Positions 1 to 58,078 of a stretch of DNA of 64,000 nucleotides are shown here, one piece after another. Positions within the stretch are counted from its first letter, which is position 1. Each line of letters opens with the position of its first letter. A program made the translations under genes and the position numbers. The stretch lies in NCBI GenBank assembly GCA_003971905.1, contig RSEE01000062.1:62001-126000 (forward strand), read 5' to 3'. The notes under the pieces are model-generated. The model was given only the letters and a program-made list of their open reading frames with translations. It was not told where the DNA came from and did no database searches. Source of the stretch: Moniliella sp. 'wahieum' (lineage: Eukaryota).

Positions 1-3000
1 GATTGTGGGCAGAGCGGGAGAGGGGATTGTGTGCGAGAGACCTGACACGATAAAAGCGATTGGTAGCGAGGGACGCTTAGAGGAAGTGGATCGAGTGGCT
101 AGAAGTTTGCGCAGTGATGGTGTTAAACACACCTGCTATGCTGACCTTTATATATAGCGGACAGCCACGGAAGCCACAAGCTGGTTACGGTTATAACAAG
201 ACATGGAGGATGACCCCACGGCCTGCCCAAGGGAGACTTGGTGCCCGCATATTGGTGATGCATGATGTCTGATGTCTGATGTGTGACGTGTGACTTTCGA
301 AGGGAGACGTGTGATGTACGATGCATGATCCAAATGATGTGGATGATTCATCGATGATCGATAGTGGATAACGGGCGGTTGCTGAGTCCATGCACCATGT
401 TACACCCGTTTACACCCTGTTCCATGTTACACCTTAATAGCTTCAAGCTTTTCATGCATCATCGATCATGTGCATGGTTTTTGATTTTTAAGGCTTAATG
501 ACTTGTCAATGAACGCGGTTAAGATGATTGTGCTACGTAGCAAGTCCGGAGCGCTGGCACGCGTTTGACGCTCGTGTCGCTCCAGCAGGCCAACCCAACC
601 TGCTGCACCATCCTCTGTGGAGCGCTGTAAGCATGCGATGAGCGCTGAGCGCGAGCGCTCAGGCTGAGGACTGCTTAATGACACCAATGATTAGATCGTA
701 AACATCAGGACAGTTGCACCCTCCCGTAGGTGGCTTCGGGGCCCCATACTCCCAGCGTGGATTTTTGACTCCGCATACAGGGTGTCTTCCTCTTCACGCG
801 CGTAAAACGGGACTTTTCCAAGCGTTCATCGCGATCACCGGGGGTGCTCACGGATCAATGTCACTCCTTGCTGCAGGCCTCGGAGGATCAAGAGCACCCA
901 CCGCCACATCGTGCCCACCGCCAAGGAGCCTGGCCTGGGCAAGTCTGGGCGCCGAGGCCCCCACATGTCGTAAGTCACGCGTGACGTGCCACCGAAACGC
1001 ATAACGCGTAACGCGTAACGCCTCAGGCTTGCGAACAACCTCAGTGTCTCAGCGCCTCAGCTCGTCTGTCGTTTCTAATTCGTGTCGCTCCGTACATTCA
1101 GGCGTACCCGCACCGCGTCACACAAAAATGCACGGTACGGCTCTCCTCCACAGGCCTTGGCGTGTCATTTTTACCTTGATCGATAAGATTAGATATGCCA
1201 ATATCTTATGCCAATGCGGCATGGGCACGTCTGTGCTTGGCGTGCTGTAAACTCAAATTGCGTCCGCGGGTTGTATAGACTAGACAAATTCCGAACAGAA
1301 GGAAGACAAGAGCCAACACAACAATTAAACATCCAAGCTTTTGGACTTCAACGTCAAGTTACCATGTGAAATTGGCATTGAAGCGATCGGACGGCGATAG
1401 CCAATCCCCTACTTCGCGCATCGGGGGTACCGGGTACCCTCCACGCCCATCGCACATTGCTTCCGTCCCCCCCCCCCGCGCCACCGCTGGCGTGATTTCA
1501 CAAAAGAAGCTTTTGAAGCTTGGTTCGCTCTCATATAGAGAAAGAGTATAACATGTGTATACAATGCCGTCTACCATGACGGTTATTCCCTTCGATCCCT
1601 ATTGCCCCTACATATAATACAGGATGCCACATGTGGAATGGGTCTTCTGGAGTAATGCAGCACCGGTCATCATGCATCATGGGAAATTTTTAAGGCCAAT
1701 TGGGCTCAAAATGATTGATTAAAGAATGTCGGTTTTTGAGGCAACGGTACTATTAGTGTACTCAGTCTGAGTGTACCTCGTCTCTTCATCTATCAGTACT
1801 CAGTTGTGTATTCAGTGAGTACACTAGTACTGACACCAAGTCACTGGTCACCGGCCGGTAAGGTCTAACCTTCGCTACACTTTACTTACAGTTACTAGTT
1901 ACTAGTTACTGCCAAGCCGAGCAAGCATGCACTTATCTATGTGTGCATGCTTCCAAAAATAAAGTTTTAAAGGTCCCGGTCACCGGTCACATTCAACGAT
2001 CGAGGATTGTGCCCCAGTGCATATAGTTTGTGGTAATCACGCGTGATATGTGACCAAAAAACGATCTAAGACATGCTACTCACTTCTGAGATCTGACATG
2101 TGCATGTGAGAGCGTAGGTCTTTGTGGGTGCCGCCGGGATTGCTCGCACTTGACCCGTGACCGACAATCTGTCGACACGTCGTCCCAATCGGCTCGGCTG
2201 TAACTAACACTCGACACATGGTGCAGGCATGGAAATATGACGAAGTGCCATCCTCTTGCATCCGTTCAGCAACACCACCTTCCCCTAGTCTATGGTCAGG
2301 ATGAAGTAGTGAAGCTTTTCAAAAGCTTTTCAAGTTGAAGTTCGAAGTGTGACATTTGACACAGGAGTGTCATTCAGCTATAGCGAGCAAAACTTCAGGT
2401 GCACCGCAACGCCCTCAACGTCCTCAACGTCCTCAACGTTCAAACATTTTGTTCACACATCATCCTGATCAGAAACGTACACATGCCAAGCGTCTCTGGG
2501 GAAACAATAATAGATGATTCAAGCACTTTTCTCGTCTCTTCGCTCGTGCCGGTTATGTTGAAGCCTAATGTGTAAATCGCTTATTGGAAGAGTAGAGGGG
2601 TTTTAGCGGGCCTACTTCCTGCGCCATGAAATTCATGAAGCTTGGTACATGATGCATGATGCATGAAAGCTTGATGTATGCGAGAAGCGCGGCGCAATCC
2701 AGCGGATAACGGACACACCTTCAAGCTTCTCTGGCAAGCTTCAATAAGCTTCAATTACGACTTCTCAGCTTCAACATAACGTTCTTCAAGCTTCAACTTT
2801 CCTTCAGTGCCACAATGACGGTCTTTTCGGTTGCTCGCACCGGCTACCGGTTACCGGTCACCATGTACCTTTTGGACTTGAACGTTGAACCTGCCCCCCC
2901 TCTGTCGTTTAATATGTCAGCCTTTTCAACGCCAAGAACTGACATGCTGCCATGATGTCAAGCATATGCTGCGGAACAACGCGATCATCAATCACCGATC

Positions 3001-6000
3001 AACGTTCAACGTGTGCAACGGAGCGTTCACGAGCTTCACTATCATGATGCATGATCGTTAGAAACATTTTGTGATCGATAATCGATGATCATCGATCATC
3101 GATCTCATACCCAATCGGGCGTGCGAGCAACTGTGTCCGAGGACAGGGGCCGCACAGGCTGCTGGCAGATTCTTGTGCGCAGATACCACAGTGTGTGCTG
3201 CGTTTCTCTCGCGCAAGGAAGTTCTCGCTTTTCTTTTTGGTGGCCCCGTACACAGTTGGTCCATGCGCTCAAGCGAAGAGGGTGCCCTGGGGTGCCCGGT
3301 GCACGATGCAACTAGCAATACCCGAAATATCCGAGGCTGAGAGATGCTTGGCCGGAAGGTCCGGCGGAGTGTAGAACGTTATATATGGTAGGGCACCGAT
3401 ACCATCTGAGTTTTGGCGATATGGGGCACGAAGGCCAAAATGAGATATGGCACAACGGTCTCCTCGAGAGACGCATGACGTATGGTGCACTGCATGGTTT
3501 GGGTGCTGCGTTGTGTTGCATGTTGTGCATGCATGTTAGATGGATTTTCTCATCTTTTAGCATGATATGTGATGCACGGCGTGCATCACATGTGACATGT
3601 GACAAGTGACATGCGTGTATATGATAGCGATAGCTGTACCACAGTGCTACACCCTGCTACATGCACTCTACACCCTACCACGCCCTACTACACCTCGGCC
3701 CCAAGTGCCAAGATTTGGAAGAACAAAGATTTCTTCCCGTTTCAGCAGGGTGCATGTTTCAGTGAGTCCGCCTGGGTCAGCGGGTGCGGCTTTCCCGAAG
3801 GCTTGGCAGGACAACAGAACCCTGGCGTGTTGTCTTGTTCAACGTTCAACCGTTCAACATTCTCAACTTATGAAAAGGTCAATTATATCCTTCAAAGCTT
3901 GAAGCTTGAAGCTTTAAGTTAAGGATAAGGCCGGTAACCGGTAAGGTCTAAGAGGCGCTATAAAGGCTGCTTAAAGCACGCAGACCCCAAGGTGAAAAGA
4001 ACCCAGCTATAAAGTACGCGGCACTCAAGAGTCCTTATGTCATCGATGAGACGCTCCGCCGGCCCAGAGGCCAGCCCCGCAAGGCAGCTCAGGGACCACA
4101 GCTTCACCATCATGAGTTAAGCGAAGTATCAATGTGGTTGGAAGGGAGGTGTGAAGTCCACACGCACTGCAAACGCCCGAGGGAAGAGAGGTATCCATCG
4201 GGCTCTTTGCATATGGTGCGAAGCCTGAAGCTGACTAGTGAGGGTCAATTGATAAGGATTTTTTGTTGGCTATGTGCATATATACACATGTGTGAGAAGT
4301 ATGACAGAGAGTCACCCCGATCGAGACAGCTAAAATAATCTACTTCTCGTTCGCCATCTCTTCGCGTAATCGCGACTCTCACATCAAACCGGCAACCCCG
4401 TTAACATATCCGCATTAATAGGCTAAATTGTATATAGAACTTCAATTAGGGACGAACAAAAGCTGCTCCCGCGGGGCTGGCTCAGCGCTCATCGATCATC
4501 CCGCATATGTCGCCCCAACCCAACCAAAAGGTGTTATATATAGTGGTGTTGCCAGTATATGCCAATACTTCCGAATACATAGTCAGTCGCTTAGAAACTG
4601 GATTTTTATATAGCGCGAGCTGAGACGAATGAGCGTGGTAGACACACGAAGCGATGAACGTTGAACCATCTTCAATGAAACTCTTCTTCAGAGTAAGATT
4701 CTTCCAATTCTCAAAGATCTTGTTGGCAGTCTTGTTCGTGACATAGTACACCTACGTGTTGCCATGACAACATAGGGGGAAGACAATCTCTGAGCGTGCC
4801 CCTGATACTTTTTCATGTAATAACATTCTGCTATCTCCAACGTTCGATTCAGCACCTTTCCCACGGTTCCACTAGCGTTGCCGTCTCATCATATATTCCA
4901 CCTTCGGGTACGCAACATTGATCCCATTTAGTACTTGTATACTCGAAAGTTCTCCATATACTGCGTGGCCCACCTACACATCCCTAATTATCCTAAAGCT
5001 CCTGGTCGTCCCACCCTGGCTCACTCGGTAGCGCTACACATCGCCCAGTCCCCCTGTATCATGGCTCCTACTCATCCACTCCGGAACCGGCTCACTGTTG
5101 AGATTATGTCATCCCGGATGGAGCGCGCAATTTTGAGGACCGTCATCCGTATGCGACCTCGTGCAACGCCTCCGCAATTTGGACTGGGTGAGAAGTTCAG
5201 ACCAATATGGACTCCAACAATGATCTCAATCCACATTGGAACACTTTTTCTGCGCTAGGAACTCCACAGAGCGCATGTGTGGCCCTGAAGACCAATTTGA
5301 GTTGACCCTGTTTTTCGGTGAACTCGAGGCACTTGGACCTGGCGTCGAAGAAAGCAAAGTGTATGGTTGAACGCATTTGCTGTGCTCACAATCACATTGC
5401 CATCCGCCGCATTGAGGTACTTGAGTATAGGTCTTTTTGGTCATTCTCATTTTACATCTTCCAGCCGCTCGGGCACTGGGTTGAAAACGCGTTCACCGTG
5501 CACGCGTCCGTGCGAGCCGCGAAAGATTTGGGATCTAACAGCTCAAGCATCCTATTGCACAGTTAATCCAAGTCGCTCACTCGCTCACTCGCTCGCTCGG
5601 CCATCAGCGCTCTCGTCTGTTCGGACACAAAAAGCAATGAAGTGCTCGCGGCGTTTTCAAGCCACAATCCGCCAACAAGGATGAAGCTTGAAGTTATGTA
5701 AAGCGACCGGTGACCGGAGTATTATTGGCGTGGTCGATAACCGAATCGATCACCAGTCACCGGTCACCAGCTATCGAAAAGCTGGTCACCGGTCAGTACT
5801 CAGTAGTCATAGTCACTAGTCACTGGTCACCGGGGTAATGTGTGCATGTGGCTTGTGATGGTGTGACATCATGCATCATGCATTATGCATCATGCCACTG
5901 CAAAATGACTGTGGGGCCTGGGGGCGCATATCCCGCCCTGCTCTGGCCTCCGGGCGTATACGGGATGTCCACAATGTCCAACGCTGGGCTTGAGACTGGA

Positions 6001-9000
6001 AACGTATGAACGGGCAATATGGTCGGCCTCAGCGCCTCAGCCTGAGGCCTGAAGCCTTGGCATCTCGGCGCCGGTGATGTCACATGGCACAACTAAATGG
6101 CACACATGCCTCTTCAGCGTCTCAGCATGCCACCTCAAGCTCCAACTTGAAGCTTCAAGGCCTCCACATTCTATCTTGCGCTCATCTCGATCGATCCGGT
6201 AATCATAAAAAGCACCTTCTCGCTCGGCCTCTCCTCGAAGCAGTGCTCATCAACCTGTGACCGCTGAGCTCACTTTTGCCAGCGCTCAAATGTTCCTACG
6301 CCTGTGGGACCTAATATAAGAATCAGGCCTGAATATCCTGAATCATGAATACTAAGTCCACCGCAGTGAAGGATCGCTCCTGGTGCCTCACAGCCACTGT
6401 CAACGTGTCAACCAAAACCTTCTTGATAACGGCAAAAGTTTCCAGCTGTGTCGTATATATGCTTCTGGATGATATGCTTTTCATGAAGCATTATGGACTG
6501 CCAGGGAGCGAGAGAGAAACAATCTGTTTCTCACAGTTGGAAAACACATATAATAGTAACCCAAAAGAGCACGCCCTCAGCCTGTTCCTCTTCCTCTCCC
6601 TCCCCTGTTTTTGTAGATGACGAAACTTTTGAATGACTACTATATAAGGCAGGTGAGGCCCTGATGCCTGATGCCCCCTCTTTGTCTCCACGCGCGCATT
6701 TTCCCTCTTTCTATGCTCCACGCAAAAGCCTTCAGGGTGCAGGGACCAAATGTTCTCTGTCCATGAGGTAAAGCCACCATTCGCACGCGGTCTTTGTTGC
6801 ACAAATGTATAGTACTATACACCGACACACATGCGTCGAACGTTGTAGTTCGCACTTAGATCAATTTAGTTGTACTGTCCTCGGATATCAGACGCAAAAC
6901 CAGCATAATCGAATACATTTTCACTGAAGGGGAAACGGTGGCAATGGAGGTCAAAGAGACAAGAGTACGAGAGGCTTTCCAAAGGAAAAGCCTGTGTGGA
7001 CAACAGGTCTGATCCGGTGGCCGTAAATTATCTCGGGAAAGCTACAGCAAAACGGTCTCCAATGTAGCCATGGATGCACATAGGGCTAGAGGCTATGCAG
7101 GCAAGACGACTAGGCCAACTATAGGAAGTGTGTTCCCCCTTCCCCCTCTCTCTATGTAGAGTACTGACATAATGCGATGCAGACGGTGTCTGGTGACGCA
7201 TTTGATGCATATAATTGTGCAAGAAGTCAAAAGGAAATTCAATGATGCACATTTGTGCATCAGGGGGATTGAAATGCTCGGGTCAATGTCGATGTACAGC
7301 AAGAGGTCTTTCGACTGAGACGAAGATACTTGTCAAAACATGCCAGTATGGGCGCTGTGGACCTTCGCCAGTGAGCGCCAAGAGCATAGTTGGAGCTTCG
7401 GGCGCTCTCAGTCATAGGCTTCCTCATATCCGCTAGCAACTGGCAGTGTGTGGTTCCCCCGGGCGGAAATCCAACATTTGAGACCCGCCCCATTCTGGAA
7501 TCCTCGGCTATTGTGTTCGCTTCGGCTGTCTTCTTTTCTAACTCCCTTTCATTCCCTCCTTCTCTCTACGCTCTATTCTCTACTTCTACTCTTCACCAGC
7601 AACCAATCATTATCGATGATTCATCTAACCTCTGCTCTTGATTGCCATTTTACTTGGCATCAGCGGGGTTTGTGGCAGTAGTGTGATCGACCCTCTCCGG
7701 CTCACCTGAACGGAAAACGCGTTCGGTTTACCGCATTTTCTCTCTCGCGGCACGATAACCATTGCTGGGGAGGAGGGCCCCTTTGTATGCTTTGACAATG
7801 TTGCTCTCCAGATTGTTCTACACTGGAAATAATGGTTTGCTGGAACATATCTTTCCAATGACGCTGGCCCCCTTTCTTAAATCTCGTCCCACCTTCTCTG
7901 AATACCAGCCATAACCTCTGTTGGTGACATGTGGTCGGTAGCACCGACATTTTCTATCTGGCCAGCCCATGTGCCACTACCAGTGGAACGAGAGGCTGCA
8001 CAGGTCCCGATATCAGACGTTCCTCTTCTCCAGGCCCATCCCCCCCATTCACCAAGACGAGACGAGACCGAATACGACGCAAAGAGTTCGGGCTCGTGTT
8101 GTAGCGTCGCAACACTATATGATCGCACCCCGTAGGAATTTTCGCAACAGTAAGTAAGGTGCACAGCCTGTGTGGTCCCCCCATCATATGTGTCCAGGCA
8201 AAAAAACAAAACCAAAATATTACCGTGTTTTTGTCGAAGGACCAATGGGATCCTTATCTTGAGAATTACTAATGGTATAGGCACGTTTGAAGCATCCCCA
8301 AAGTACAATCTCGTAAAAGGAGTGATGTGGTGTGGCCTGTACAGAGGCCAGAGACAGCTTAATGAGGGTCGATGGGGGGGAACTGGCTCTTGAATTGAAA
8401 GTCCGGTGCTGAAGTACTCTTCGGTTGCTTCCGGATATCTCCCCTAATGTTATACCACATCCATGCGCTGGGGTATTAAGCATGGTGCTCCTCTTGGGAT
8501 CGCTAACAGGATGCGATATTAGTCCATTTGATTGTGACGACTAAGATAAGATGTGGGGCGGATGACCCATCTGAAAAGACAGGTTGTCGAGCCCCCTGCC
8601 TGAGCCTGTGCCCCCCCCTTTGCCTTCCTCGCCCCCGACTTGCTCCCCCCATGTGCCACGGGGCGATACTACGCAGCAGCCACCAGAATATTTCCGTTGG
8701 CGCCGCTGTTGGATATCGCACGCTCTCGGCTTCTGTTATACTAGCCGGTGATCGACGTGATCCGTGTACGCGATCGCGCCGGATTTACCTTCAAAAACCG
8801 ATGTGGTCTCCAACAGACCACAGCTTGGCCGTTTGCCTATTGTGTAGCTCGCGGGCCAACTTTGCCTGCCTACATAAAGACCCCCGCTCTGTACTGAGAA
8901 TTCATAGGGGGCGAGCAACCAATCGTCTTGTCCTGCGCCCCCCGTCAACTGGCCTCGCTTGGACTCAGCCTGGGAACGCGACCGCAAGCAAGGCAGAGGG

Positions 9001-10434
9001 GCGACGACCCTTTGGGGGCGAAGCACGCGCTTCGGGCCTACGTTTGATCCCCTTGTCCGGCGAGCTAAGACGGCTGACTCCCTCTCGGGCCATGTCAGAC
9101 AAGGTTCTCTTCGTCCAGGAGGCCATGCCGTTATGCTACGGATCTACCTCTTATTCCCTGTTCTGACCCCTCCGACCCGATTAGATCGTTCCCAACACCG
9201 TCAACACCTTTACGGTCTTCGATAGTAAAGGAGGCGGATCGCTTTGGATGCCAATGGTACTCACATTCAGGCTGCATGGAATGGTGCTTGATATACCAAA
9301 GGGAAAGGAGAAGCAATCGCACGGTATATCATCGCATGAGAGTCGGAGGGAGAGATACACAAAGGGGTCAAGACCTAGAACAGGGTCACACGCACAGCCG
9401 GTGCGTATGTGTGTGTGAGCCGTCAGACCGATCGTCCTTGCCCGGCGACCGAGGTGGCCATCGACGCGATACGCATCCTTGGCGACAACACAACAGTCGC
9501 ATCTTGTGCCTGTTTGGCTGTCGCTCCTCCAGTACTCACACTGTGCTCTATTTTGGAACACAGGTCGTCTCGCCTCTTTCTACTTTTTCAATCCCTTGCT
9601 TTTCCCCGTTCTTATATATGGCCTTTTGGCTCTCTTTTAGTCCCCGCCGTTTGCCTGTAAAAACGGTTTGGTGCCCTCCTCGCGGTCCATGGCTATTGGC
9701 GTCTTCTCCTCCCGGTTCTCATCAATTATGGTTCAATCCACTGGCATCGTCCTCTTCGAATTGCTTCCATCACCCAATCATCCAACTTCCACCGTTTCTC
9801 CGAGCTCCCAGAACCCAAAAGCAATGATGTCTCCCTCTGCCCCCTCACCTGTACCCGAGTCCGAACCGCGCTTCAGACATGCCACTACTTACCAACGGTA
9901 CAGTACATTACGCAACTTGTCATACAACTAATGAGCCGCTGCATCTGCCAGACACCACAAAAAGCCTCTCCTTGTCCTCTTTTCACTCCGCATGTGTGAG
10001 ATAATTCGATACTGCACCTCTCAGTCGTCGTAGTTCGATGGTTCCCATTGAACCGTCAGTTACGAGAAGTCCAGCGCACTCACGTCCCATATTGACGTGG
10101 AGACGATAACTTGATCTAACCAAACCGTGTGCGCCGCTGACACTAATAGAGGATGCCAGTGTTCTGGCCGTGTGTCTGTGCGCCTTCCTTTTGTGCTCTC
10201 TTGCGTTCCTGTCCCCTCTTCTGTCTTAATTCTCTCCACGACTGACGCCGCTTCCACACGACATTTCGTTCATCTCCGTGCTCATGATCAGCTCCCTAGC
10301 TCTTTCAACCAGTCGAGACCATCTGATTGCGGCCGGCTGAGCAGAGCGCAACTCTACCTACCCACACGCACGCCTTTGGTTTGGTAAATGCATGCTGACG
10401 ACAATTGGGGATTGATCAATGCATCGCGCACCGA

Positions 10435-11285: not shown

Positions 11286-12331
11286 TTTTGGTGTATAGTG
11301 CAGATGCTAGACCAGTAAAGTGGCGACGGACGCGGGTGGAGGAGAATCCTTAATTGGGGTGGGTGGAAGTGGATAGATGGAGAGAGTTGGTAAGCGTGAA
11401 GCGTCGGGGTAGGGGGGGGGTAATGATTCCTCATGGATGGAGAGAGGGTATATATATTCCCGAGGTGTTGCAATTAATGGAACCATAGGGAGGCCCGTGT
11501 GCGCTACATGATGGACGCCCCAACGCAGCACATGTTTGGGGAGGCGAGAACTGGCAGATAGTCGGCTATGAAGTTGTGCCACCACAATATACTACGCTGT
11601 ACCTTAAATGGCAAGTGTCACGATTTAAGCTTCCAGACCCCAGGCTTCGAGCCAGCTTGACACATGTCTAAAACGTAGCTTGACAGGTCGCTGGTGCATG
11701 TCATTAGAATGTGGGGAGAGATGCTATCATGGATGCAAAATGTGGGGAGAGATGCAATAAATGCTAAGTGCCATCCTCTCTACGATCGAAGTTCTAATAA
11801 GCGCTAAGCGCCCTACTTCCTCACAGCGCCCTCAGCGCCCTCAGCGTTCAGCGCCTCAGCACCAGCCCTCACGGAATAGCCGGATGCGCCCAGTGCACGG
11901 GCCAGTGTAGCAATGCAAGTATGCCAGAACGCAAGCGAGACATCGGATGAGTCTCTACGATGCAGACAGCGGATACAGCGGATGTGAGAGAGAGGAGGAG
12001 TATCGAGTACAAGCGGGAGCGGGTACAGGTGGTGGGAAGGCAAATACAGGCGTTGCTACAAGAAGAAAAGAACCCTTCTGAGTAGGGAAGCTAACTGAAG
12101 AAGACCTAGCCACAGAGCCACGTGGAAACACCAGGGGGGGGGGGAGGTAGATATGACATACACATTCTTTGGAGTATAGAGAGACCTGGCCCTCCCCAAT
12201 CGCAATTGTTACGGGGCGCTCTCTGGTTATTTTCGGACACTGAGCCCCGCATGTCGTATTAGACATCTCAGCCCAACACACGTCAGTCCTGCTAGACTAG
12301 CGAGAGAGAGAGCCAGACGCGACCTGATCTG

Positions 12332-12467: not shown

Positions 12468-13161
12468 ATATATGGTTACAGTATAGAGATGAACAAAGGG
12501 GAAAGGGAAGAGCGAGATATCTAGGGGGTGCACAGGGACTTGAGCGCTTGAGCGACGACAGCTTCTCAATCCTGCAATCCGTCGACATCACTTTTGCGAG
12601 ACGCGAGGAATAGGGAAGGACGTAGCGACGAGGCCGAGGGGCAGTCTTGCGCAAAACACGGTGCTTGCTCCTCCATGTCGCACTCGATTGCGGGCACAGT
12701 CTGGCCTGGTGGACAGGACGTCGCTACGCCAGGACATGGGGGGATGCGGGTGGGGTGGGTGGGCGGCCAGCTGGTGAGCAAGCGAGGATCACGTGCGGGT
12801 GCTGCCTGAAAGCGCGTGTTGGGGTCAACGTTTAACGCAGGACGCACTAGGGTTAGCCGTCTGTGCTGCAGTTGGGCTGGGGCGCATGTACTTTCACGGG
12901 GTTGGGTTAATGCAACGCCGCTCACTCGCCCCGTGCAGCGTGCGGGCGGTGGCACGGGGACAGTGGCCGGTGGAGTGCCAGTGTGTGGCTGCCGAGTGCC
13001 GTGCTGTCCGAGGCTGGGCGGCAGACACGCGTTATGCTTCCCGCGTTGCTCGCGGCCGCCTGTGACATGTGATGGCACGGACATGTCAATCATATCAATA
13101 CCAACCCCATATCCGTCGCAGTGCTCACTGGCTTCACTCGCTTCCCTCCCCCTCCCCCGCC

Positions 13162-14869
13162 ATGGCCGTCCAGTCCACCCTGGCCCTCGCCCCCGTCGAC
13201 CCGGCAGTGTACACGGCGGTGCAGAACGCCCATCGCCCCCCCGGCGCCTGTGGCTCTACCTCCTCCGCCTGCTGCTGCAGTATGCCTTCACCCTCCCCGT
13301 CGTCCTCGCCGCCACGCCCTTTGTCATTCTGCGCAACCTCTTCCCCTTTCTGCGCCACCATCCCGCATGGACCTTCAAGACAGGCGTCAGCACCACCTTG
13401 ATCCGCCTCGCCATCATCTGCATGGGCCTCATTCGCTTTGCCCCCGCCCCCCACTCCCAGTCGGGCTGGCTGCAGGGCAACTCGGCCTACAGCGGGCTGC
13501 TGGCCATCCTGCTCCAGCTCACCGCCTGGCGCAGCATGGGCAGCCGCATCTGGGCCGACACCCGTTCTGTGCCGCATTTGAGCCACCTCCATGGTCGCCG
13601 GCTGGACGAGGTGTGGGTCGCGCCGCCTCCGGTTGACTGGCTCCGGGGGCTGTTGGCCGTGCGGGACACGGCACAGCCACTGGACTGTCAGCTGTCCTAC
13701 TCGCCGCTCTACCGGGGCCGGCCCATGGTCGAGCCGGGCTTTGCCAAGCGGCACACCAAGTGCTACTGGTACCTGTCGCGCGGGACCAAGGTCCCGCCCC
13801 TGCCCGAGGATGCGGTGAAGAAACGTACCAAGCCCGTGCTGCTCTACTGCCATGGCGGTGCGGGCGTCAGCTTTTCAGCCGGGGACTTGTTTATGGGTGC
13901 TACGTTGGCTGCCTTTTTGGCCCGAAACGGCAATATCGACGTGTTTACCGTGGACTATGACTTGGCTCCTTATGCCAAGTACCCCACGACGATCGTCCAG
14001 CTGTTTGGTGCCTGGCTGTACCTTGTGATTGACCTGGGCTACGATCCGAGCCAGATCTTCTTTGGTGGTGACTCGTACGGTGGCTTGGCCACCTTACTGC
14101 TGGACCGGTACTTGCGGGACGTTTGGCCGCACCTCACGCCCCTTCGGCACGATCGTTTGCCGTGGCCGACCAGAAGTATACGTCCGAGTGGATTGAGCAG
14201 CGGGTAGCTAAATTCAGTGAGTTGCTAGGCCCGGCACCGGAACGTGCGCCGGTGAGTACGGCTGGCTTGGTCCTCTTTTCCCCCTGGTTGCATATCGAGG
14301 ACGAAGGGGAACTGTTCCTCAGCCGGGCCAAGGCGATGCGGTATGACATTGTTACCACGCGCTACATGCACTGGGGTACCGATAGTCTTCAAATGACCCA
14401 CAAGCACATCAAGTCCAATGCGTTGCCCGCCAGCTCGCCCTGGATCTCGCCCTGCTTTATGCCTGCTGACGAGTTGGCGCACATGCCGCCCATGTGGCTC
14501 GGGAACGGCGGAGCTGAGGCCCTGTTGTCCGAGGGCACCCACTTTGTTCGTTCGGCCCGCGCAGCCGGGGCCGACATTGAGCACCATGTGCTCCCAGGTA
14601 TGCCGCATGACTTTTACAGCATTCCATTTGAGATCAACAACGCCAAGAAGCACTATTCCTTGCTCAAGCCCTGGTTTCAGACCCATTACCAAGCCGCCCA
14701 ACAGAGGCAAACGCATGCCACGCACTCTCCCTCGGAGGAGAAGCGTGCGTTGGAAGCGGCCTGGGCAGATGCGACGAGCACCACCACCTCGGTTCCTACC
14801 GACGTAGAGGCCCAAGCTGCGCTCAGCACCTCGCTCACCGAATCGGGCGTGGTCGTGCCCTCCAACTAA
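13162..14869 (+). CDS. Alpha/beta hydrolase (hormone-sensitive-lipase-like esterase/lipase) with hydrophobic N-terminal segments; apparent frameshifts near 13240 and ~14150-14200
   Basis: HGGAG oxyanion motif, VDYDLAP..KYP, GDSYGG nucleophile elbow, SPW, and GMPHDF catalytic His, spread over ORFs 13069+, 12816+ and 14123+. Confidence 0.88.
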
Positions 14870-33316: not shown

Positions 33317-34267
33317 GGTGGCCGCTGTGTTGGAAAGGCGCAATGGGGTGGGATGGGGGGGGTGGGGTGGCGATGGCACTTGCCAGATAGTGACTAGTGA
33401 CTCTGGCCCTGGCGATGGCCACCCGCCCTCGTGCGGCTACCCGACTTGCTCCCTCCCCCCAGAACGCGAACACAAGCGGAGCGCGGATTACTTCAGCGCG
33501 CCTCCTCACTCGCCCTGTACCTGTGCCTGGCAAGTGTGAAACGTTCATCCCGCAGGGGGGCGCAGGCGCTTGATCTGCATCATGCATCACATGTCACATG
33601 TCACGCATCGTCCACATGGCTGTTACGCGTTACGTAGCCACCGAAAACCTTCGCCCTCTCCAATCTCACCTTGGAGGCACCATAGCTGCCGGAACGATGG
33701 AGCCTCCGCTTTGCCCCCGTTGCAATGTCAGAGCGCTTGCCGACCAGCCGGAGCATGAGCATGATCATGATGCATGACGTTTCAATGTGACAGGAAGTGA
33801 TGCCAGCAGTCCGTCGAATGCTCATGCGCTCATGGACCCTGATCAAGTCAATGAGGCCTGAGAATGAATGGTTCCCATTCAAGAATGAGTACTCACTGAA
33901 TACTGAGTGTACTGAGTGAGCAAACATGGATTGCCCATGGGCCTGATCTGCCATCGGCAGCACCACCCAACACGCCTTATAACGCGTCTAACCTGGAAAG
34001 GCTCAAAGGCCCCGCTGGTCCAGCGATATGGCCGCTTCTGTTGCCCGCGCATCGAGCACGGCCATGAGACAGCAATTACGTCAAGCAGCCTGCGGCGCCA
34101 TCCATGTCATCCTTGCCGTATCCATCATCGGTCATCCGCTTATTAGTGAGACGATCCGCTCATCACAGGCAGCCAAGGCTCAGTCGCTCATCAAAGCATC
34201 AAATCCCATCCCATCCCATCCATCCACAACCATCCCCATCCGCATCTCCATGCCCCCCACCCCCACC

Positions 34268-46100: not shown

Positions 46101-46215
46101 CGAGGTCGTCCCTTTCGTAGGCATGCGAACACGCCTGTGAGGGAAGGAGCACGATGCCTCGGGCTAAGACGGGGGCTTGCGAGCCCTTCTCGGGACCGAG
46201 TTTGGCCGAGCCCAA
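43182..46215 (-). mobile_element. Non-LTR retrotransposon of the CRE clade (Cnl1/MoTeR-like): single ORF with RT, Zn knuckle and restriction-like endonuclease; 5' boundary undetermined (may extend to ~47300)
   Basis: GAGLSGWT, LTPLEKASGGIRPIACGE, QLGV, LDFTNAFNTV, GVRQGDP, AYLDD, GLKLNLRKC, SLPLRLGG, WLSAIP, CKCG...HIMSC, and EP..RTD..VDHT..ECDKNVKY..FFPLV. Stop at 43310. Confidence 0.93.
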
Positions 46216-48294
46216 AAGCTCTTTTCCCTCACAGTAGTGCCATGGCGGACAAGATGCAGTAATAGGGCCCCGGATCCGGCGGCTGTGTGTCTACGTATGA
46301 TGCCCCCCGCAGTGGCAGTTCGCCTTCATTGCACCGGCCTTGTCCCCTTCAGGAACTACACACGGCTGTCCTGGTGGTTCTATTAACCCCTCCGAGCTGG
46401 GACGACAGCTGGCTCCCAACCCAACAAAGTCGCGATCGTAGACAAGTCGTCATCCACGATAAGTCTCCTCTTTAATGCATCCCGCAGGGTCCCCCGATTG
46501 CTCAGTCTCGCTATTCCCGTTCCAGTCCCAGTCCCATCCGGGGTCCGCGCACGACAAAATAACGATGGTAGAACGGACGCTATAATGGTGGAAGCCAACA
46601 CTAGTCCTCATCACTCTGGGGTGGATGATATATGTACTTGCCAAACTCCATCACGCGTCTGTACAGCGTTCCTGGGCTCGTCTGCCCTCCACCTTCTCCG
46701 ACATGGAGATGAGTGAGGAATTCGCCTGGCTTGCACTGGGAGCAGGGGAATCATGGACGATAGAGGTTCCCAGGCTGTGTCCCCTGAAGCAGAAGGAGGT
46801 GCAGGAGGGGTGGTGTGAGAGCTCGTGAGGTCCCGGGCGCCAGTTCCCCATTGGCGTGGGCGGAGGCAGTACTACTCAGCCGCCTTCGTTTTCGCGCCTG
46901 ACCCGAATTCCCTCGCCCTGCCCCAGAAGTGCGAGGGGCACGCCTCTGCGGCCAATCACCTGATTGGCCGCCAATTGAGCCTGAGCGGCTTCGACTTACG
47001 GTAGTTTCGGGCTTGGGCTGGTTGGTTGTTCCGAGCGGAGCTAGGGACGAGGAGAGAGGGATTTGGTGGGGCGGCTGCACGACGTGTGGCGAGACTGCGT
47101 CTGCACCGGCTTGTGCCGTAGTAACGTGTCTGAAGCCTCTGGGACTTAGGGACGGGAGGAGGCAGTGGCAGAAACACTGCCTCAACTGAGACTGGATAGA
47201 GACTGGAAATGGACGTGGCCAGAGGAGGGCTCGCGCGACTGGACTGACGGATTGCTGGAGGACAAGGTGGGAGGACAAGTCGGACGCTAACAAGAGGAGG
47301 CTACCTGTACTGGATCAGTTGGCTGGAAAACGGGCAGGAGTCGGACAGGATAGGTGGGAAGGGGAAGGAGACAGGAGACGAGAGAGGACGAGAATGGAGC
47401 GTGGACGAGAGAGGACGAGAATGGAAGGTGGGGAAAGGATCCCCATCAACCAGGGGTACAGGCAAGATCAAAAGGGAAACGGATACAAGAGGGCGTGTAC
47501 AAACGAAGACACTTCAAAAGAGGGGTTGGTCGCCGCAGGCGCGACCGAGAGAAAGGAAAAGGAAAGGGGGCGGGGCGACAGTCGTCGCAACGACACTGGA
47601 AGCTCGGTGGCCTTATTTAGGCCAGCCGACTTGGATTTGGGCGGGGGGACTATTGTCGCGCGGTTGCATGGCCCTTCGGACCACGGACTATTTTAGCCCA
47701 CCATCATCGCACTTGGTTGGCCTGCGGTGCACGCTCTACTGGTCATGTGAGGAGCAGGTGGGCCTTAGCTTGGGTCGGACCATCTCGGGTCCGCCGCAGC
47801 CCGTAACAATGAGAGGAATGGCGAATGAAATACCAGGTGTCAGGGGGGAGAAGGGGTCCGTAGTATAGCGTCTCCCTCATGCATCACCATGACGCACCTT
47901 TCAACACTCGATATACTTCGACCATCGTCCACCCTCCCTTTGGCCTCAGTGCTCGTACTCAGCTCCCTAGCACTTTCATCCGTACTCAGTACTCAACCAG
48001 GAGGCCATAGGTGCCATCAGATTGAGGCCATCAGTTGGTCACGGGGGACTGTACCGAAGACTTTTCTTAACTTCAGCTCCACTCCCACCACCCCGTTTGG
48101 GTTTGGGCGACGCACAGAAGAACTAGAACTACATTGTTTGCTGTTTGCCCGTAAAAGCACGGTGTGGGCAGTGCAATCGGCTGCTAGCTCTGGGTGGCAG
48201 ATAGAGGGGTGAGGCCAGAGGAGCGGAGGGAGTGGAATGTAGAAGAAGAACACATGTACCTATCAAGAACCCCGGGGGACTGGTAAAACACCAA

Positions 48295-48704
48295 TCTATA
48301 CTAGGACACGTGCACTATCCACCAGGCTCTCACCACACAGAGTGAACCTTTATATATAATGCCCTATTAACCCTCAGCAAAGACGGACTGACCTTGTGCT
48401 GTGTCGGACCTTGAGTCCCTCTAATACGTTATTAGAATCCCAAACGGGGTGTGCACCACTCTTTTACATCAGCATTGCGTAAGCCACCGGTGCGCAGCCA
48501 GCCACCCCAGCCACCCCAGCCAGCGCGTATCGGTGATATAACTACGCTGGCGAAGGGGGGAACGGTGGCTAGGTGGCGACGGGGACCGGGGAACGGTGGC
48601 TAAGGTGGCGACGGGGGAACGGTGGCTACGGTGGCGGCTGCGAGCAGCAACCAAGCTGGGGCGAAGCCCCAGCTGACCGGGCCGTAGGCCCGGTGGTCTC
48701 CTCG
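48295..48704 (+). mobile_element. Possible small non-autonomous Helitron-like element
   Basis: A|TCTATACTA at 48294-48303, internal repeats, two GC-rich hairpins (48654-48674, 48676-48694), then CTCG|T. The terminus is non-canonical and there is no second copy in the window. Confidence 0.3.
48553..48636. repeat. Three imperfect direct repeats of GGGGAACGGTGGCTA(A)GGTGGCG
   Basis: Read directly. They lie just upstream of two perfect hairpins. Confidence 0.8.
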
Positions 48705-50945
48705 TACGTTATATCACGCGTCACCTCCGTCTAACGAGAGCGGTCGCGGTCGGCGACCAGTCGGGGCATCAGTGGCAACAAGTAACAGGTTCCCCTCTTC
48801 AGTCGATAGTCTCCATATTCAATCCACACGCACAGGACCATTGATAAGCTGTCATATATATCAGCTGATAGCTCCGCCGATATCCGATATCCGGTCCCGG
48901 CTTTCCCGCCCCCAGTCGCTGGGAGCTCTTGCGTACCGCCATGCATCGGTACCATCAGTATTCAGACTGAGTACTCCTCCCTCGACACTTTCAAATGCTT
49001 CGTCGTTCATCGATCTTCATCAGTCTCGCAGCTTCTGGCAACAGTCCTTGGTCACACGTCACACGTCACATGTCACATGTTACATGTTACATGTCATGCA
49101 TGTCACAGCGCAGCTTCCGTCCCGGTTGCTGCTCCAATCGCAGTCAGGCCCCAGACTCAGGGCTATGTGTGTTCCTCGCTACCGCGCTACCTCTTCTTCC
49201 GTCCGCGAGATGCCGAACGCCTTTTCAGGCACAACGACGTCACACGTCTCAGCTCTGCGCAAACGCCGCGGATCAGAGTCTACACAGGTCTACGCAGCTT
49301 CGCATCGAGCCCCACACACAAGTCGCCTTAATGCATTATCGATGTTACATGTTACGTGTTATACACCCAAAGACCTTTCTCGCATAGCTAGTAACTAATA
49401 GTAACTCCCCTCGGACTCGGTACTCAGTACTCACCGGTCATCACCAACACCCCAAAGCTCGAACATGCTGTGCATGTGAGTACTGAGTGTACTCAACTGA
49501 GTACTGAGTACTGAGTACTGAGTATCGACCGTTCCGACCTCCAAAGGGGTTTGGATCCCTTTGATAACTAGTATGTATACCCCCCACACCAGACTGGGCG
49601 CAAGGCGCACTCAGATGTCAGAGGGGAGTGTGCCCGTCTATGATGCATGATGCCTGACAGTCCCAGGCACGCGGCAGGTGCGGCTACCTCATAGACTCCA
49701 TCCAGTATATACTCTCACATACACTGCAAGCTGTCCAACGTCCTACTCTACTAAGTAGACTTGCACGTGCCCGTGAAATCATTAATCATTAATCGTTAAT
49801 CTAATCAGGCCTCAGGCCTCAGGCCTCAGGGAAGATGGAAATACGCGCGCGGGACCTAGTTAACCTAGTTACGCCGCGCAGTGAAGCTTGAAGCTTGAAG
49901 CCGGTGAGGAAAAGGCCTGGGAGGCCTGGGGAGGCATGAGACCTGAGGCCTCGGACACGGGCGCCCTCCGAAGTCAGCTTTTGACTATTGGTCCCCTACC
50001 ACATGTCACTAGTCACTAGTCACTTGTCACTTGCCACGACTGTATTCGTCGCTGTGGGGTCACCGGTCACCACTCGGTACTCGGTACTCGCAGGTCACCG
50101 GTCACCCGTGTCTGCTGGTCATTCTGCCGCAGCCGGGGCGGGCAAAAATGCCAAGACTTGCATCACTGGGCTTTGGGGGAGCGTAAGATCGGGTAGAGCC
50201 GCTAAGACAGTATTTGTGGGGTATTTGGCTTGGCGCTCACCGATCGACGATGGCTGAGACCCGAGGGAACACATGGGTGGTGGCGCAGAGGGTGGGAAGC
50301 TTGAAGCTGTGACATCTGATGCTGCTTGAAGCTCTTGAAACTTGAAGCTTGAAGATGCGATGCCGGGCGGCAGCCTGCAACACCCAGTCGCAGATCTTTA
50401 CTTTTTGGATGCCACGAAAGACAGTTGCCACCGAGGTTGTCGGTCGTCGGTCGTCACCCGGTGCGAGCATCGCAAAGTGCCAAGTCCTACTTCAGGGTCC
50501 GAAAGGTCTGATTAATGATTAGTACTTAGTCTCTGATCTATACCATCGCGGTTAATGATCGATCACTGGCTCATGCGCTCATGAGTAATGGATTAATGAT
50601 TCATCAAGAGGGGAGGATGCGACGCCCATCTCCGCAGCCGCAACGACTGTTGCCGGACCTGCTCTCCCACCGTTTGACGCACCAGTGGTTCTTTCTTGAC
50701 GCTTGAGGCCTGACCCCCACTGCGCCCGTGCCTTGGACAGTGGAGAGTACTATCCAACGTTCACCATAGTAGGGCACGCCTACCGGCAGAGGATAGGACC
50801 GAAGACCCGAAAGACGATGGAACCAAACATATATAAATCAGGAATCGCTGCATGGATAAACTGGCTTAGAGTAGATCACCGCCCTTCTTCTGCCCTTTCT
50901 GCTCTGCTCCTTCACCTCTCGAACGCACTCCAATCCCGTCCCAGT

Positions 50946-52697
50946 ATGCGCGCCCTTTCCCCCTTTGTTCTTCTGGCGATTTGCCTGGCGGCCGAACCGG
51001 TGGTGAACGCCTTGCCCATGGCAGGCGAGTCGGGTCAATCTCCCATCAAGCGTTTGACAGTGCCGCTGTATCGTCGTGAAACCGCAAGTACGAATAAGCG
51101 CGGCTTGCAGGCATCCCACGAAGAAACGGTGGCCCGAGCCAAAGCTGAAGTTGCCCACCTGCGCGCCAAGTACTCCGTGGGTCAATCCAATGACTCGACC
51201 GTTGCCACCGCGGGTCAGGCCAGCAACAATAAGCGTCAAAAAGAGGTCTTGACGACGGTTGGGCGCGATCGCTTCTACTATGCGCCAGTTACGTTCGGCA
51301 ACCCCGGGCAGACACTGGCTGTTGTGCTCGACACGGGCAGCTCGGACGCGTGGGTGGTAAGCGACAAGTGCTGGGGTAAGTATGTGACGAAGTGCCCAAG
51401 TTCTCTTCCGACGCGTCGACGACATTTAGGATTTCCGACCAGCCGTTCACGTCGGTTTACGGCATTGGAAGGCTGAGGGCACACTGGTCTTGGACACTGT
51501 CTCGATGGGCGGCGCAACGGTTGACCGTATGTCGTTTGGCTTGGCGACCTATTTGTACGACAACCCGGTGTACGCGCCCGCAGCGGGCCTCGTCGGTATG
51601 GGTCGACAGGAACTGAGCGGAATGGGCGTCACGCCATTCTGGCAGGTACTGAGTAAGCTCCATGCCATCGATCCTGTGTTCTCGTTCCAGCTTGCGCGCA
51701 ACCCCGATCCACGCAACCTTACTGTCGAGGCCCCGGGAGGTATTTTCACTCTGGGTCAGCTAGACTCGGAGCAGTACTCGGGCGAGATCACTTGGATGGA
51801 TGTTGATCAACACTCCAAGTACTGGGCCGTGGAATTGGACGAAGTCACAACGATGGGAGACAAACGGCAATACAGCTCCAGCACGACCGTCCTTGACACA
51901 GGTATGTGTGTCTAATAAGTGCGACCATATGTGATTGAGCCTCCAGCAAACTGACGCGGTTTGCCATTGTAGGGACCACACTGATCAGCATGTCGGGTAG
52001 CATGATCAGTGATCTTTATGGTGCCATTCCTGGTTCGGGGCACTACAAGGACGACGCCTCGAGTGGTCTGTACACGTTCCCATGCGATACTGAAGTTAAG
52101 CTGTCGTTCACTTTGGCCGGGAAGGAGTACGCTGTCGATCCTGTCGACTTCAACTATGGCCCTGCGGACGACGCAGGGACCAACTGCCTCGGGGCGGCAT
52201 TCGACGTTGGCTTGACCGGCAGCGGTATGCCCACTGTAGTCATGGGCGATACTTTCCTCAAGTCGTACTTTACTGCTTTCCGGACCAACGACCAGGGCCA
52301 AGCACAAGTAGGTCTGGCCGCGCTCAAGTCGGGAACAGCGGCGCAGACGGCGCAGACGACTGTACCCATTGCGACTGCAACGGATGTGACGGCGTCGCGA
52401 CACAATTACGTCACGACGGACTACAGTCAAACCACTGAGTCAGCCGCAGGTACCGGTATCTACTGGGCCACGGACTTCTCTGCCCCCATCGCCTCAGGAA
52501 CGGGCGGTGTGGCTACAGCTACCTCGGCCCCGTTCGATCCTTCCGCCGCAGCTTCTGCTTCAGCAGCCTACGGCTCGGCCAGTGCGAGCGCGATGAGTTC
52601 AACTACGAGCGCTGGGTCGGTGACTGCCTCTGCCTACTCCCCCCCCATCGTCATTCTTCTCGCAGTGTTCGGAGGAATGGCTGCTGTCTATCTCTAA
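50946..52697 (+). CDS. Secreted pepsin-family (A1) aspartic protease, probably GPI-anchored; intron 51902..51972; frameshifts ~51390-51480
   Basis: Signal peptide MRALSPFVLLAICLAA, KR-ended propeptide, LDTGSSD, second DTGT joined across the intron, MGDTFL, and an S/A/T-rich tail with a hydrophobic C-terminus. Confidence 0.93.
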
Positions 52698-54329: not shown

Positions 54330-54531
54330 TGTGACCACTCCGGGAAATAGGCCTGGTGGGGAAGAAGAGCGGACTGGGCTGCCCACGACCCGGTAAGGTT
54401 TTCGCTCGGGCGGGTGGCGGGGCGGGTGAAACGTAGGGTTACAGAGGGTGACAGGCTCCATGCCAAAGCCATTGTTATTGCGCCTCTTCCGCAGCACCAT
54501 ATGCGTGCTAGGGTTATGCATGAGCAGCCGA

Positions 54532-54580
54532 TGACTAGTGACTAGTGACTAGTGACTAGTGACTAGTGACTAGTGACTAC
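54532..54580. repeat. (TGACTAG)6 + TGACTAC heptamer array upstream of RPS25; longest perfect member of the intergenic heptamer family
   Basis: Counted directly. Confidence 0.95.
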
Positions 54581-55907
54581 TGCTGCTCCTTGTTTTCCGC
54601 TGGCGCGGGTTGGTTTACCCACCAGGCTCCTGGTTCTGTGCCCCTGCTGCCACTGTTAGGATGCTCGTCCCTACAATTGTCAGGATGACTTGCATTTCTT
54701 CATTTTGGTAGGCACTCAAAGCGCATTCGCTCGGGCTGTGAGGACCAAACATCACTATACCATCACTAGATCACTACTGAATGGTGCAAGCATGCCTTCA
54801 TTTGAACGTTTTGAACACAGGTGCGGCGGACCCCCATTCATCCGCAGCCCTCCACATCGCCGGCGGCTCACAACGATAATTGTTTTGACGGCGATCGATC
54901 AATATTCAATGCGCGGTGGCGGTGGCACAACAAAAGAGCTGTGGACTCCTAGCCTATAAGTGGAGGAGTTCTCAGCTGAGATTCAGCCCTGAGGTTCAGG
55001 CCATTCAAACCTTTCAGGGGTTCAGGGTTAGGATGGTTGGGACACTGAAGGGATCCGTCATGCATCTTGGGCTTGAAAGCATCTTCCAGCCTCGAGGGAC
55101 AGGCGACATGAAACCTGAGGATCAGGAATGAAGCTTGAAGCATGGGCCCATGGTGCGCGGTGCATGAGCTATGCGAACTTAGGACAAGAGATCATGAGAA
55201 GAGTGCTAGTGCTAGTGAACGTTGAGCACGTTCAACACGTACAGGCAACACTGCAGTCTGTCACATGAAGCACCACACCTGGGGCTTTACGCGGTACGCA
55301 GTACGCTTTATGCGCGACCGCCAATATCTGTCACAAGGGGGCTGGCTTTCTGGACCGGCCAATGTGCAAGCAGAGGCAGGCCGACCGTTAAGAGTGGAGA
55401 AAGACCACATGCTAATACCATACTAGAGGGGGCAAGAGGAAAAGAAAAATGCAAAATGAGTGAGGGTGGTGACGAGGGTTAGGGGCAGGGAGGTGGACCA
55501 AGTCCAGCTAAGAAAAAACACAAATACTGGACCAGAGCCCACGGATGGCAATAACAGAGAAGGGGGACAGCCCCGTCCACTTGACCGAGGCCGAGGCGTG
55601 GAGCAAGACATTGGCCCTAGGATACCTCGCGAGTAACGGGGGCAAAGCCAGAAATGACAAACAAAAGATAGCAGTGCAGCAAGTAGCATGTGGCATCTCG
55701 TCACCAGGACGAGAGACGAGATGGGAAGGTGTGGACAGATCTGATCTGGGTGTTCGACTACCGGGAGGGAAGGGGGGCATGCGCGTCCCGGTTCAGTACG
55801 CTGCCCAGACTGGAGATGGACAGAGAGCGTTGAAGCCAGAGAGAAAGCACCATGACAAAAAAACGCCATGGATGCATAACAAGAGAACCGGGGAGGAGGG
55901 GATGCGC

Positions 55908-56626: not shown

Positions 56627-58078
56627 CGTGGCAAAGAGAATGGGTGGGAGGGGGGAGGCTCTGGCTAGCAGAGGGCGGACGAGAGAGTGTGGTGGGGAGA
56701 GGAGATGGGAGAGCAGGCTCTCTCGCTGTTTTCTGGGCAGACGAGGGTGGGGAGGGTGGGTTGGCTGGGCTGATGCGCTGATGCGCCGGTGCATGATGCA
56801 TGATGCATGATGCATGATGGCGCTGGCCCTTGGAGCTGTGTGCTGTGGTGTGCTGTGGGGTGTTGCTACTGGCGCGGTGGCTCCGCGGTGGCTCGCGGCA
56901 GAAGGGCAGTGGGGCGCAGCAAGACTCGCCACATCATGCATCAAGCTTCAAGCTGCATGCACAGCGCTCATGCTCATGCGTCACCCTAGTGGCTGGCTTT
57001 GCCCCCAGGTGTGCTGTGCTGCCTTGAAGCTTTAAGCTTCAAGAGCTTTAAGCGCTAAGCTTTAAGGTGCGTTACATTACGCGTTGCGTTTCAGTAGCTT
57101 CCCTATTCCATGTGTTAGTGGCGCCGTGCGCGGTGGACCGAACAGCACAGCACAGCGGCGCAAGCGGCGCTGCGGCACAGGGCGTTGAGGGCGTTGAGCC
57201 GGTGGGAGCGTGTGAGCATGTGAGATGTGAGAGTGCTGCAGCGCCTGTGGGGCCGCCTGGGGCACCCCTCGGCCACGGTGGCGATCGGGAGGGTTCGGCG
57301 CTTCTCCGGCCACCGGCCACCCTTGTCCTCGGCGAGTCGGCGCACCGCTCGCAAGGCACCAGGGCAGTCGGCGATGTGGATCCGGGCGGTGTCGGCCACA
57401 GGGGAAGTGTCCTCTACTTTGAACATACTCACTCACATGTGATGCGGGTGATTGCGATTGAGCACTTGCGCGCGGGAGCGCTCTCCTGCGGCCGGCGCTG
57501 GCCATGTGGCCATGTGATGCGCGTGACACGTCACACAGAAATCCCACGAGCAGCCGAGGATCGACACTATCTCATCAATCATTAATCATCGATCCATCCT
57601 CAGCGCCTCAGCGCCTCCGCCTCAGTATCAATGCTCCATTTGACCGGCTCAGCGGTGGGGGCAGGTGGAGCCTGGTGGCTAGTATCTAGTACCTAGTGGA
57701 GCCAGTGGAGCTACGAGCTCGCAACCGCTCCTTTTACATTTCAATGTTCCCTCATGCCCCCCTCGCCACTGCCAGTATTATGTTACCTCAGCACATTCGG
57801 CGCTCGGAATCGGCGTAGCGCGTAGACGGATAGCGCCGGTGCAATCATTAATCAAGTGCGGTTCAATTTCCATACTGAGCGCACGAGCCTCCGCCACACG
57901 AGTTCCAGATAGCAGAATCCAGATACCGCAAGTGATGCTCGCACAGTGATGTGATGGACCGGGAGCGCCGGCATCGCCATCCCTCCCATATTGGTTGCTA
58001 GCCCTGCAGCACACCCATCTGGCTCTCTCCCGGCCCTGCCCCCGCATCCTCTCTTAGAAACAGCACGCATGCGTCACG

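Follow-up and report, generated by a model that had tools for sequence, protein, structure and literature searches.

Period-7 TNA arrays in Moniliella sp. 'wahieum' as probable stacked excision footprints of a transposon family with 7-bp target duplication

Introduction

What process writes short tandem arrays that share one period and one scaffold while their cores vary? The question is raised by a 64,000-nt stretch of the genome of Moniliella sp. 'wahieum' (GenBank assembly GCA_003971905.1, contig RSEE01000062.1, positions 62,001 to 126,000), here referred to as the window, whose intergenic DNA carries arrays with a period of 7 bp in which TNA triplets enclose mostly palindromic 4-mers. The original prediction, made from the window alone, offered two explanations, namely a protein or chromatin system that reads a TNA-n4-TNA scaffold, or a mutational process that combines template switching with slippage. 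The analysis described here leads to a different view: the arrays are probably stacked excision footprints (scars) of a cut-and-paste transposon family that duplicates 7 bp of its target. The assembly comprises 69.5 Mb in 223 contigs (labelled C1, C2 and so on), contains homeologous blocks, some of about 75% and others of 92–95% identity, and looks like that of a hybrid or polyploid with several subgenomes.

Period-7 arrays on a TNA scaffold

The arrays are real. Pairs of TNA at a spacing of 7 number 270 in the window versus 137±7 in local dinucleotide shuffles, and three TNA in register occur 78 times versus 9.4. Among the spacings from 1 to 30, only 14 (177 versus 135) and, weakly, 20–21 exceed the shuffles as well. 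The A..T class of hexamer palindromes alone is enriched (354 versus 172 expected), with those starting with C, G or T at or below expectation. A palindromic 4-mer core stands between two scaffold triplets in 124 cases for TNA versus 8 for ANT, 23 for CNG and 13 for GNC, and the TNA scaffold encloses palindromic cores of 2, 6 and 8 bases only 22, 4 and 2 times. All 17 stretches listed in the original prediction contain the hexamer named for them, as a single occurrence at 2089, 2999–3012 and 5750–5770. The three cores that had been reported as missing are rare rather than absent, the window having ATAT at 54899 and TATA at 48350. The arrays are also non-coding, as had been claimed: the coding intervals of the window (hand-drawn, 19,172 bp) hold one junction, located in a retroelement, while 123 lie in the remaining 44,828 bp, and hits in coding DNA appear to have been purged.

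Genome-wide, five TNA in register occur 3,761 times versus 1,002 for a control that is itself not independent of the arrays, and the 10-mer TSAAGCTTSA is found 8,700 times versus 65 for its control. A larger sample of 864 kb, composed of the window and a further 800 kb (200 kb of C1 picked for richness, 200 kb chosen for homeology or adjacency, and 400 kb taken blind), contains 935 TNA-palindrome-TNA junctions. All 16 cores occur among them, with AATT (8), TATA (8) and ATAT (19) being rare. Roughly 55,000–70,000 junctions are expected genome-wide by extrapolation from the blind 400 kb (320 junctions) and from the share of AGCT cores (116/935). The tandem excess at period 7 is confined to TNA (343 versus 16), and the same junctions were found again on separate homeologous contigs. 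The non-palindromic core ACCT (n=112) stems from a coding repeat on C4, 10.5 kb of which were masked in the flank-rule and later counts; this repeat of about 10 kb (C4:317–327 kb, L098–L099) is rich in Glu, Lys, Ala and Pro. As shown below, the A..T palindromes are a by-product, and the actual unit is a 7-bp target, written here as ab-TNA-xy.

A flank rule for cores and fillers

The cores copy their own surroundings. Among 356 isolated palindromic junctions with the same N on both sides, and with a prime denoting the mirror (complement) base, the core equals xy-y'x' in 122 cases (2.3 expected) and b'a'-ab in 101 (1.5 expected), while both forms coincide at a palindromic target in 64 (0.2 expected). 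Hence, the core mirrors two flanking bases in 287 of the 356 junctions. Counted by length, the one-sided match is most frequent at exactly two bases (66 and 43 cases), a peak that slippage is unable to create. Isolated junctions with a complemented N show no such peak, having a two-base one-sided match in 5 of 76 cases, and near-cognate centres (e. g. TNG/CNA) obey the rule weakly.

The same mirror principle applies to longer products. Where a TNA-centred 7-mer is directly repeated in exact form, the spacer mirrors the flank in 25 of 28 cases for 1 nt and 20 of 26 for 2 nt, and in none of 7 for 3–4 nt. For non-TNA 7-mer repeats, the corresponding fractions are 28/63 and 17/110, and words with an off-centre TNA show no such behaviour. 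Direct repeats of TNA-bearing 9-mers are almost absent and those of 8-mers few. Because 7-mer repeats with a TNA centre have mirror spacers and longer words hardly occur, the duplicated unit is 7 bases long; the palindrome is even and flush with the edge of the 7-mer, and the additions end at two bases. Two-base fillers mirror the flank in 144 of 229 cases and thus represent flank mirrors, not element sequence. By these rules, the window contains 81 scars of the +7, 11 of the +8 and 7 of the +9 class, stacked ones included.

In all of these products both target copies are kept, either whole or trimmed at the inner edge, as in excision footprints. The mirror fillers can be read as the palindromic (P) nucleotide pattern of a flush flank hairpin, by analogy to RAG and Transib excision. 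Two other geometries were rejected. A 5-bp duplication with two P bases would involve P bases from the other end, which were seen once versus 144 times, and the +8 and +9 scars display seven bases. A 9-bp duplication with a one-base offset is unsupported by the word-length counts.

These regularities also bear on the mutational process of the original prediction, of which the mutational origin stands while template switching plus slippage does not, since 755 of 934 palindromic junctions have the same N left and right of the core and only TNA is enriched. Replication template switching that seeds palindromes, to be expanded by slippage, could explain the double symmetry of the arrays, the plain 7-mer duplications also present (one retroelement copy contains CTTCAAC in triplicate), and the fact that non-TNA 7-mer repeats vary between homeologs, too. 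However, a TNA taken from the other strand would have a complemented rather than a directly copied N, and the complemented-N junctions lack the flank rule; ANT, CNG and GNC should work equally well, yet are unenriched; and the mirror stretches end at two bases, exactly at the edge of the centred 7-mer. We regard this origin as extremely improbable. Slippage in particular cannot make the first scar because only five bases are repeated in it, and an ordinary slippage microsatellite, for which whole-unit duplication in any phase and without scaffold preference is expected, does not describe these arrays.

Differences between homeologous and repeat copies

Related copies differ by such scars. In the homeologous block of C17 and C62, which is 92–94% identical (L137 versus L139 and L140, about 6 kb aligned), 15 indels of at least 7 bases were found. 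Five of these fit the scar classes exactly, i. e. +7 at L137 positions 711, 2115 and 6111, +9 at 5949, and a 22-base difference at 2326 that equals 7+7+8. Likewise, a repeat copy (L026) shows a two-step scar relative to another (L019). The 20 copies of the window retroelement compared include one 14-base plain duplication at TCA, and no mirror scar was found among them within the aligned 2.9 kb. Among 20 copies of a solo long terminal repeat (LTR) from the window, at least one mirror scar is present, which is centred on GAA rather than TNA.

The CT-CACTG inverted-repeat family

A plausible candidate for the scar-making agent is a family with terminal inverted repeats that end in CT-CACTG, consisting of elements of about 4.9 kb and a 378-bp miniature inverted-repeat transposable element (MITE). 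Its ends were sought with a TNA-anchored pattern, then with the unanchored end motif, which gave 14 ends (control: 0), and then by DNA search with 148 bases of one end, which gave 19. The count does not include five pattern matches whose flanks are shared, nor two that may represent a subfamily (C12, C15), as these were missing from the results of the 148-base search. Six young copies are 97–100% alike over the 148 terminal bases. Of the 18 ends whose flank was read, 17 abut nnTNAnn, and five of the six paired copies lie in an exact 7-bp nnTNAnn duplication: GATCATG on C23 (4,968 bp), GTTGATG on C29 (4,970 bp; the right flank was predicted and then read) and on C34 (4,945 bp), CATCAAC on C35 (4,856 bp), and GATGATG around the MITE on C20 (378 bp). 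The insertions on C29, C34, C35 and C38 share the 7-mer GTTGATG or its reverse complement in differing surroundings, which indicates a sharp target preference. Element sites and scars also agree in composition, with N being G or C in 11 of 11 element sites and 240 of 287 scars, and a weak-strong xy is preferred by both.

Behind the inverted ends, TTCCGT-rich subterminal repeats extend over about 400 bases. Short subterminal repeats are typical of CACTA elements. The termini read CT..AG with CACTG two bases inside in all 14 ends, as opposed to the 5'-CA..TG-3' of CACTA-type elements, and the 7-bp duplication lies outside the 2–5 bp that passages of PMC12730594 give for the CMCT clade. The CT-CACTG family or older relatives of a CACTA-like class are probably the agent. 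The window itself holds no copy of the family, and a de novo search for inverted ends inside 5–9 bp duplications in about 1 Mb returned no element; with some 10 copies per 69.5 Mb, none is expected there.

Several observations weigh against this assignment, or against excision as such. The flank rule is violated by 69 of the 356 isolated junctions. In the C17/C62 block, 7 of the 15 indels do not fit the scar classes and 3 fit loosely, while the scar-poor pair C9/C18 (9.7 kb) has two 7-base indels, of which none is a scar; moreover, the homeolog comparison is unrooted, having no outgroup, so that the direction of the differences can only be presumed. The paired copy on C11 (228241–233089, 4,849 bp) has two different TNA-centred 7-mers as flanks; for this young element, an adjacent deletion or recombination between copies may be responsible. 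Searches for Tnp2 and related domains matched nothing inside the CT-CACTG copies, whose interiors were not read, and the family is accordingly not classed as CACTA. Excision is deduced from scar shape, with no excision observed and no pair of empty and filled sites seen. Finally, weak-strong half-sites make up 19 of 22 in the CT-CACTG family (hand count) versus 41% in scars and 29% in the background. Because its sites are more selective than the scars, the family alone cannot account for all of them and older relatives are needed. The disparity between about 19 element ends and tens of thousands of scars also calls for a very high flux in the past.

This selectivity would also suit another superfamily, now lost or missed, with a 7-bp duplication, and passages of PMC12730594 indeed describe hAT7 and Kyakuja as duplicating 7 bases in basidiomycetes. 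Yet in hAT footprints the palindrome has its centre at the complement of the element-adjacent base (PMC5873905), while the scars are even and flush, and the hAT-type isolated form occurs in 5 of 204 cases. Genome-wide Pfam searches gave 0 matches for the hAT dimerisation domain and the KDZ domain, both being weak tests in which no control matched. An origin from hAT7 or Kyakuja is therefore considered very unlikely. For MULE, PF10551 had 0 matches in the genome (three controls matched), and the duplication is 7 bp rather than 8–10 bp. For PIF/Harbinger, DDE_Tnp_4 (PF13359) had 0 matches, and the duplicated unit reaches two bases beyond TNA on each side instead of being a 3-bp TNA. DUF4218 and Plavaka likewise had 0 matches in the genome, several of the Pfam searches being without a matching control.

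The excess of scars over element ends, by thousands to one, could alternatively mean that no transposon is involved at all and that the 7-base staggered cut at TNA is the work of a nuclease, such as a transposase retained by the host, followed by filling and hairpin formation. Two Tnp2-like genes without inverted ends exist in the genome, L137:2500–5725 on C17, which stands beside a P-loop ATPase gene and is syntenic in two subgenomes at 92% (C62, L139), and L138:1965–5570 on C34, located 8 kb from a CT-CACTG element; both are candidate domesticated transposases. However, because each lacks one catalytic acid in the profile alignment (H at the first catalytic D in the C17 gene, W at the conserved E in the C34 gene), both look inactive. 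In addition, real elements with an exact 7-bp duplication are present, and +8 and +9 scars require that both copies are filled before hairpinning, as insertion provides. An element-free enzyme is hence an unlikely source of the scars.

Proposed mechanism and related systems

For excision of a transposon as the source, the following scheme can be drawn up. The element inserts at ab-TNA-xy and doubles these 7 bases, as seen in five of the six paired copies. At excision, each flank would be sealed as a flush hairpin, similar to RAG and Transib. A host nuclease of the Pso2/Artemis type may then open the hairpins 0–2 bases off the tip, which would generate overhangs of up to 4 bases, xy-y'x' and b'a'-ab. 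End joining that retains one overhang and drops the other would afford the +7 scar as the main class, whereas retention of both 7-mers with one or two mirror bases would give +8 and +9. At a palindromic target the overhangs would be complementary and a clean doubling of the 7-mer could follow. Once a +7 scar has formed, its TNA stands in a palindromic target, so that further hits in the open DNA of promoters could lengthen pure arrays. The number of pure arrays falls off with the number of units as 600, 64, 14, 3, 0 and 2, which is close to the scar load of 10–20% per TNA in hot promoters (16/144, 29/142); repeated hits may therefore suffice to build the arrays, and some slippage may add to them.

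The individual steps have precedents. Hairpin opening two bases off the tip is known, and both V(D)J recombination and Transib excision proceed with flush hairpins and P additions of 1–2 nt. V(D)J coding joints and Transib are thus the closest likeness, sharing the flush flank hairpin, short mirror additions by a full-length end, and host end joining. Transib has a 5-base target duplication rather than 7 bases with a TNA centre, and here the main product loses two bases of one copy and tens of thousands of scars build repeats. Flank hairpins are known for hAT, Transib, RAG and MULE, according to a part of PMC5499845, and a nuclease of the Pso2/Artemis type has been named for hairpin opening in PMC5873905. 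The same source describes P nucleotides in hAT footprints, which are short in a yeast host and form a palindrome centred on one complemented base. Ac/Ds and other hAT elements hence resemble the present case in their P-nucleotide footprints, and hAT7 of rust fungi in its 7-base duplication, but not in the even, flush palindrome. As for the element, the CACTA/EnSpm member CNIRT6 of Cryptococcus neoformans has CACTG at its start and a target duplication of 3 variable bases (PMC12810828). It has in common with the CT-CACTG family the end motif, inverted ends and subterminal repeats, and Tnp2-like genes occur in the present genome; the differences are the start with CT-CACTG and the 7 bases around TNA.

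Distribution of scars in the window

The scars concentrate upstream of genes. The largest cluster, with 38 junctions at 256..4664, precedes a minus-strand gene that resembles an MFS transporter on reading its translation and whose TATA-like box (147..156, minus strand) is kept in the C33 homeolog. It includes stacked +9 scars at 2413..2437 (CCTCAAC three times with GT, the mirror of AC, in between) and a single +7 scar with a right-flank core copy at 4655..4666 (TGA ACGT TGA AC). A cluster of 11 junctions follows at 5682..6332 with a mixed array at 5786–5830, and close by are a +9 scar at 6328..6343 (CCTGAAT twice with AT in between) and a +8 scar at 6398..6412 (TGTCAAC twice with G in between). 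A single +7 scar with a left-flank core copy stands at 13061..13072 (TG TGA CATG TGA). Eight junctions at 33391..33895, with a +8 scar at 33820–33834, lie upstream of a gene at about 34.2 kb. A cluster of 32 junctions at 47877..50713 precedes an aspartic protease gene and includes arrays at 49052, 49498, 49779, 49805, 49882 and 50006 and a scar at a palindromic target (50058..50071, GG TCA CC twice), the class that lengthens arrays in exact register. Another 10 junctions at 54514..55225, upstream of an Rps25-like gene, contain a +9 scar at 54801–54816 and the longest pure array, TGA CTAG at 54532–54576. The last cluster comprises 11 junctions at 56794..57854.

This placement is what selection on the arrays could produce, with a protein or chromatin system that reads TNA-n4-TNA having built and kept them. 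Ten 5' regions (20,090 bp) contain 83 junctions and four convergent gaps (2,629 bp) none, with about 9 expected per TNA, all of these intervals being drawn by hand. Moreover, the promoter of the MFS-like gene and its C33 homeolog, which are 75% identical, are both rich in junctions (18 in C33). Their cores, however, differ in identity and place and are set by the local flanks, and all 16 palindromes are used; insertion into open promoter DNA may explain the location without selection. The system proposed in the original prediction fails to predict cores that copy their own flank or differences between homeologs, and we deem it highly improbable. Because both homeologs are rich, but with different cores, the promoter at the start of the window appears to be a hot spot rather than a conserved code.

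Other features of the window

The genes of the window are fungal. For a kinase domain, the best named matches come from Malassezia (about 50%), ahead of those from rusts and other basidiomycetes, which marks the host as a basidiomycete with no closely related species among the annotated ones. Positions 12329–42868 are colinear with C33:55–98 kb at about 66–86%, and a third copy of the LAMMER kinase gene is found on C24. Between two kinase genes, at 21800–26200 and outside the blocks aligned with C33, several open reading frames have neither Pfam matches nor genome copies. Housekeeping genes are often frameshifted (e. g. 12810–14869, 36416–39027, 50700–52697), which suggests single-base indel errors in the assembly.

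The window also contains repeats. A multi-copy, frameshifted block at 43160–48710 with 36 long matches at 92–98% is retroelement-like by its translation and gave no Pfam match; some of its copies stand as inverted pairs (L017, L026, L028). The solo LTR (TG..CA) at 11906–12130 lies in a 4-bp CCAG duplication and has 38 genome matches, two copies carrying a GAAGA-TC-GAAGA mirror scar that departs from the TNA consensus. A repeat of about 480 bp at 8652–9133 has some 17 copies among the matches listed, at 71–80% identity. Two small window repeats were considered as the scar-making element and rejected, one of them being the solo LTR with its 4-bp duplication.

Implications

Transposon footprints and P nucleotides are already known, whereas the scale and the flank rule found here are, notably, new within the literature searched. 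Outside Repbase and subscription papers, no description was found of genome-wide flank-templated heptamer scars or of a 7-bp duplication around CACTG-type ends. In 80 metagenomic Rps25 loci (658 kb, fungal; not placed taxonomically, with no close relative of the host recognised among them), there are 53 TNA junctions versus 33–39 for other scaffolds and hence no comparable excess. Four of these loci (L153, L184, L186 and L187) have 4–6 TNA junctions versus 0–3 for other scaffolds, possibly by chance or as a weak version of the phenomenon.

To our knowledge, the excision chemistry of the CACTG-ended group has been predicted rather than shown. Footprints have otherwise been described at individual loci and in assays. 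The present genome offers natural scars by the tens of thousands, which reveal a cut geometry, i. e. a flush hairpin, opening within two bases and three product lengths, for elements whose ends would be CACTG-like. Conceivably, a CACTA-related lineage with a 7-bp TNA-centred duplication and RAG-like flush hairpins is tolerated or retained by the host as a promoter-targeted mutator that is still running. Its elements would land in open promoters, leave again nearly immediately and, through the palindromic heptamers left behind, rewrite transcription-factor sites; such in-and-out transposition would then be where most promoter variation and tandem repeats of this lineage come from. We hold this far-reaching view to be rather doubtful.

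Taken together, the scars indicate that tandem repeats can be initiated by a process other than slippage, and they would testify to an enormous transposon flux in the past, to which copy counts are blind. A related case may be Ustilago maydis, for whose '10-bp repeats' PMC4081816 mentions a suggested origin as transposon footprints. These repeats, too, are numerous short intergenic repeats of a basidiomycete, and TNA-n4-TNA also spans 10 bases; as the passages concerned give no sequence, rule or element, the two can be compared by description only. The flank rule makes this suggestion testable, and the same flank test is applicable to any genome.

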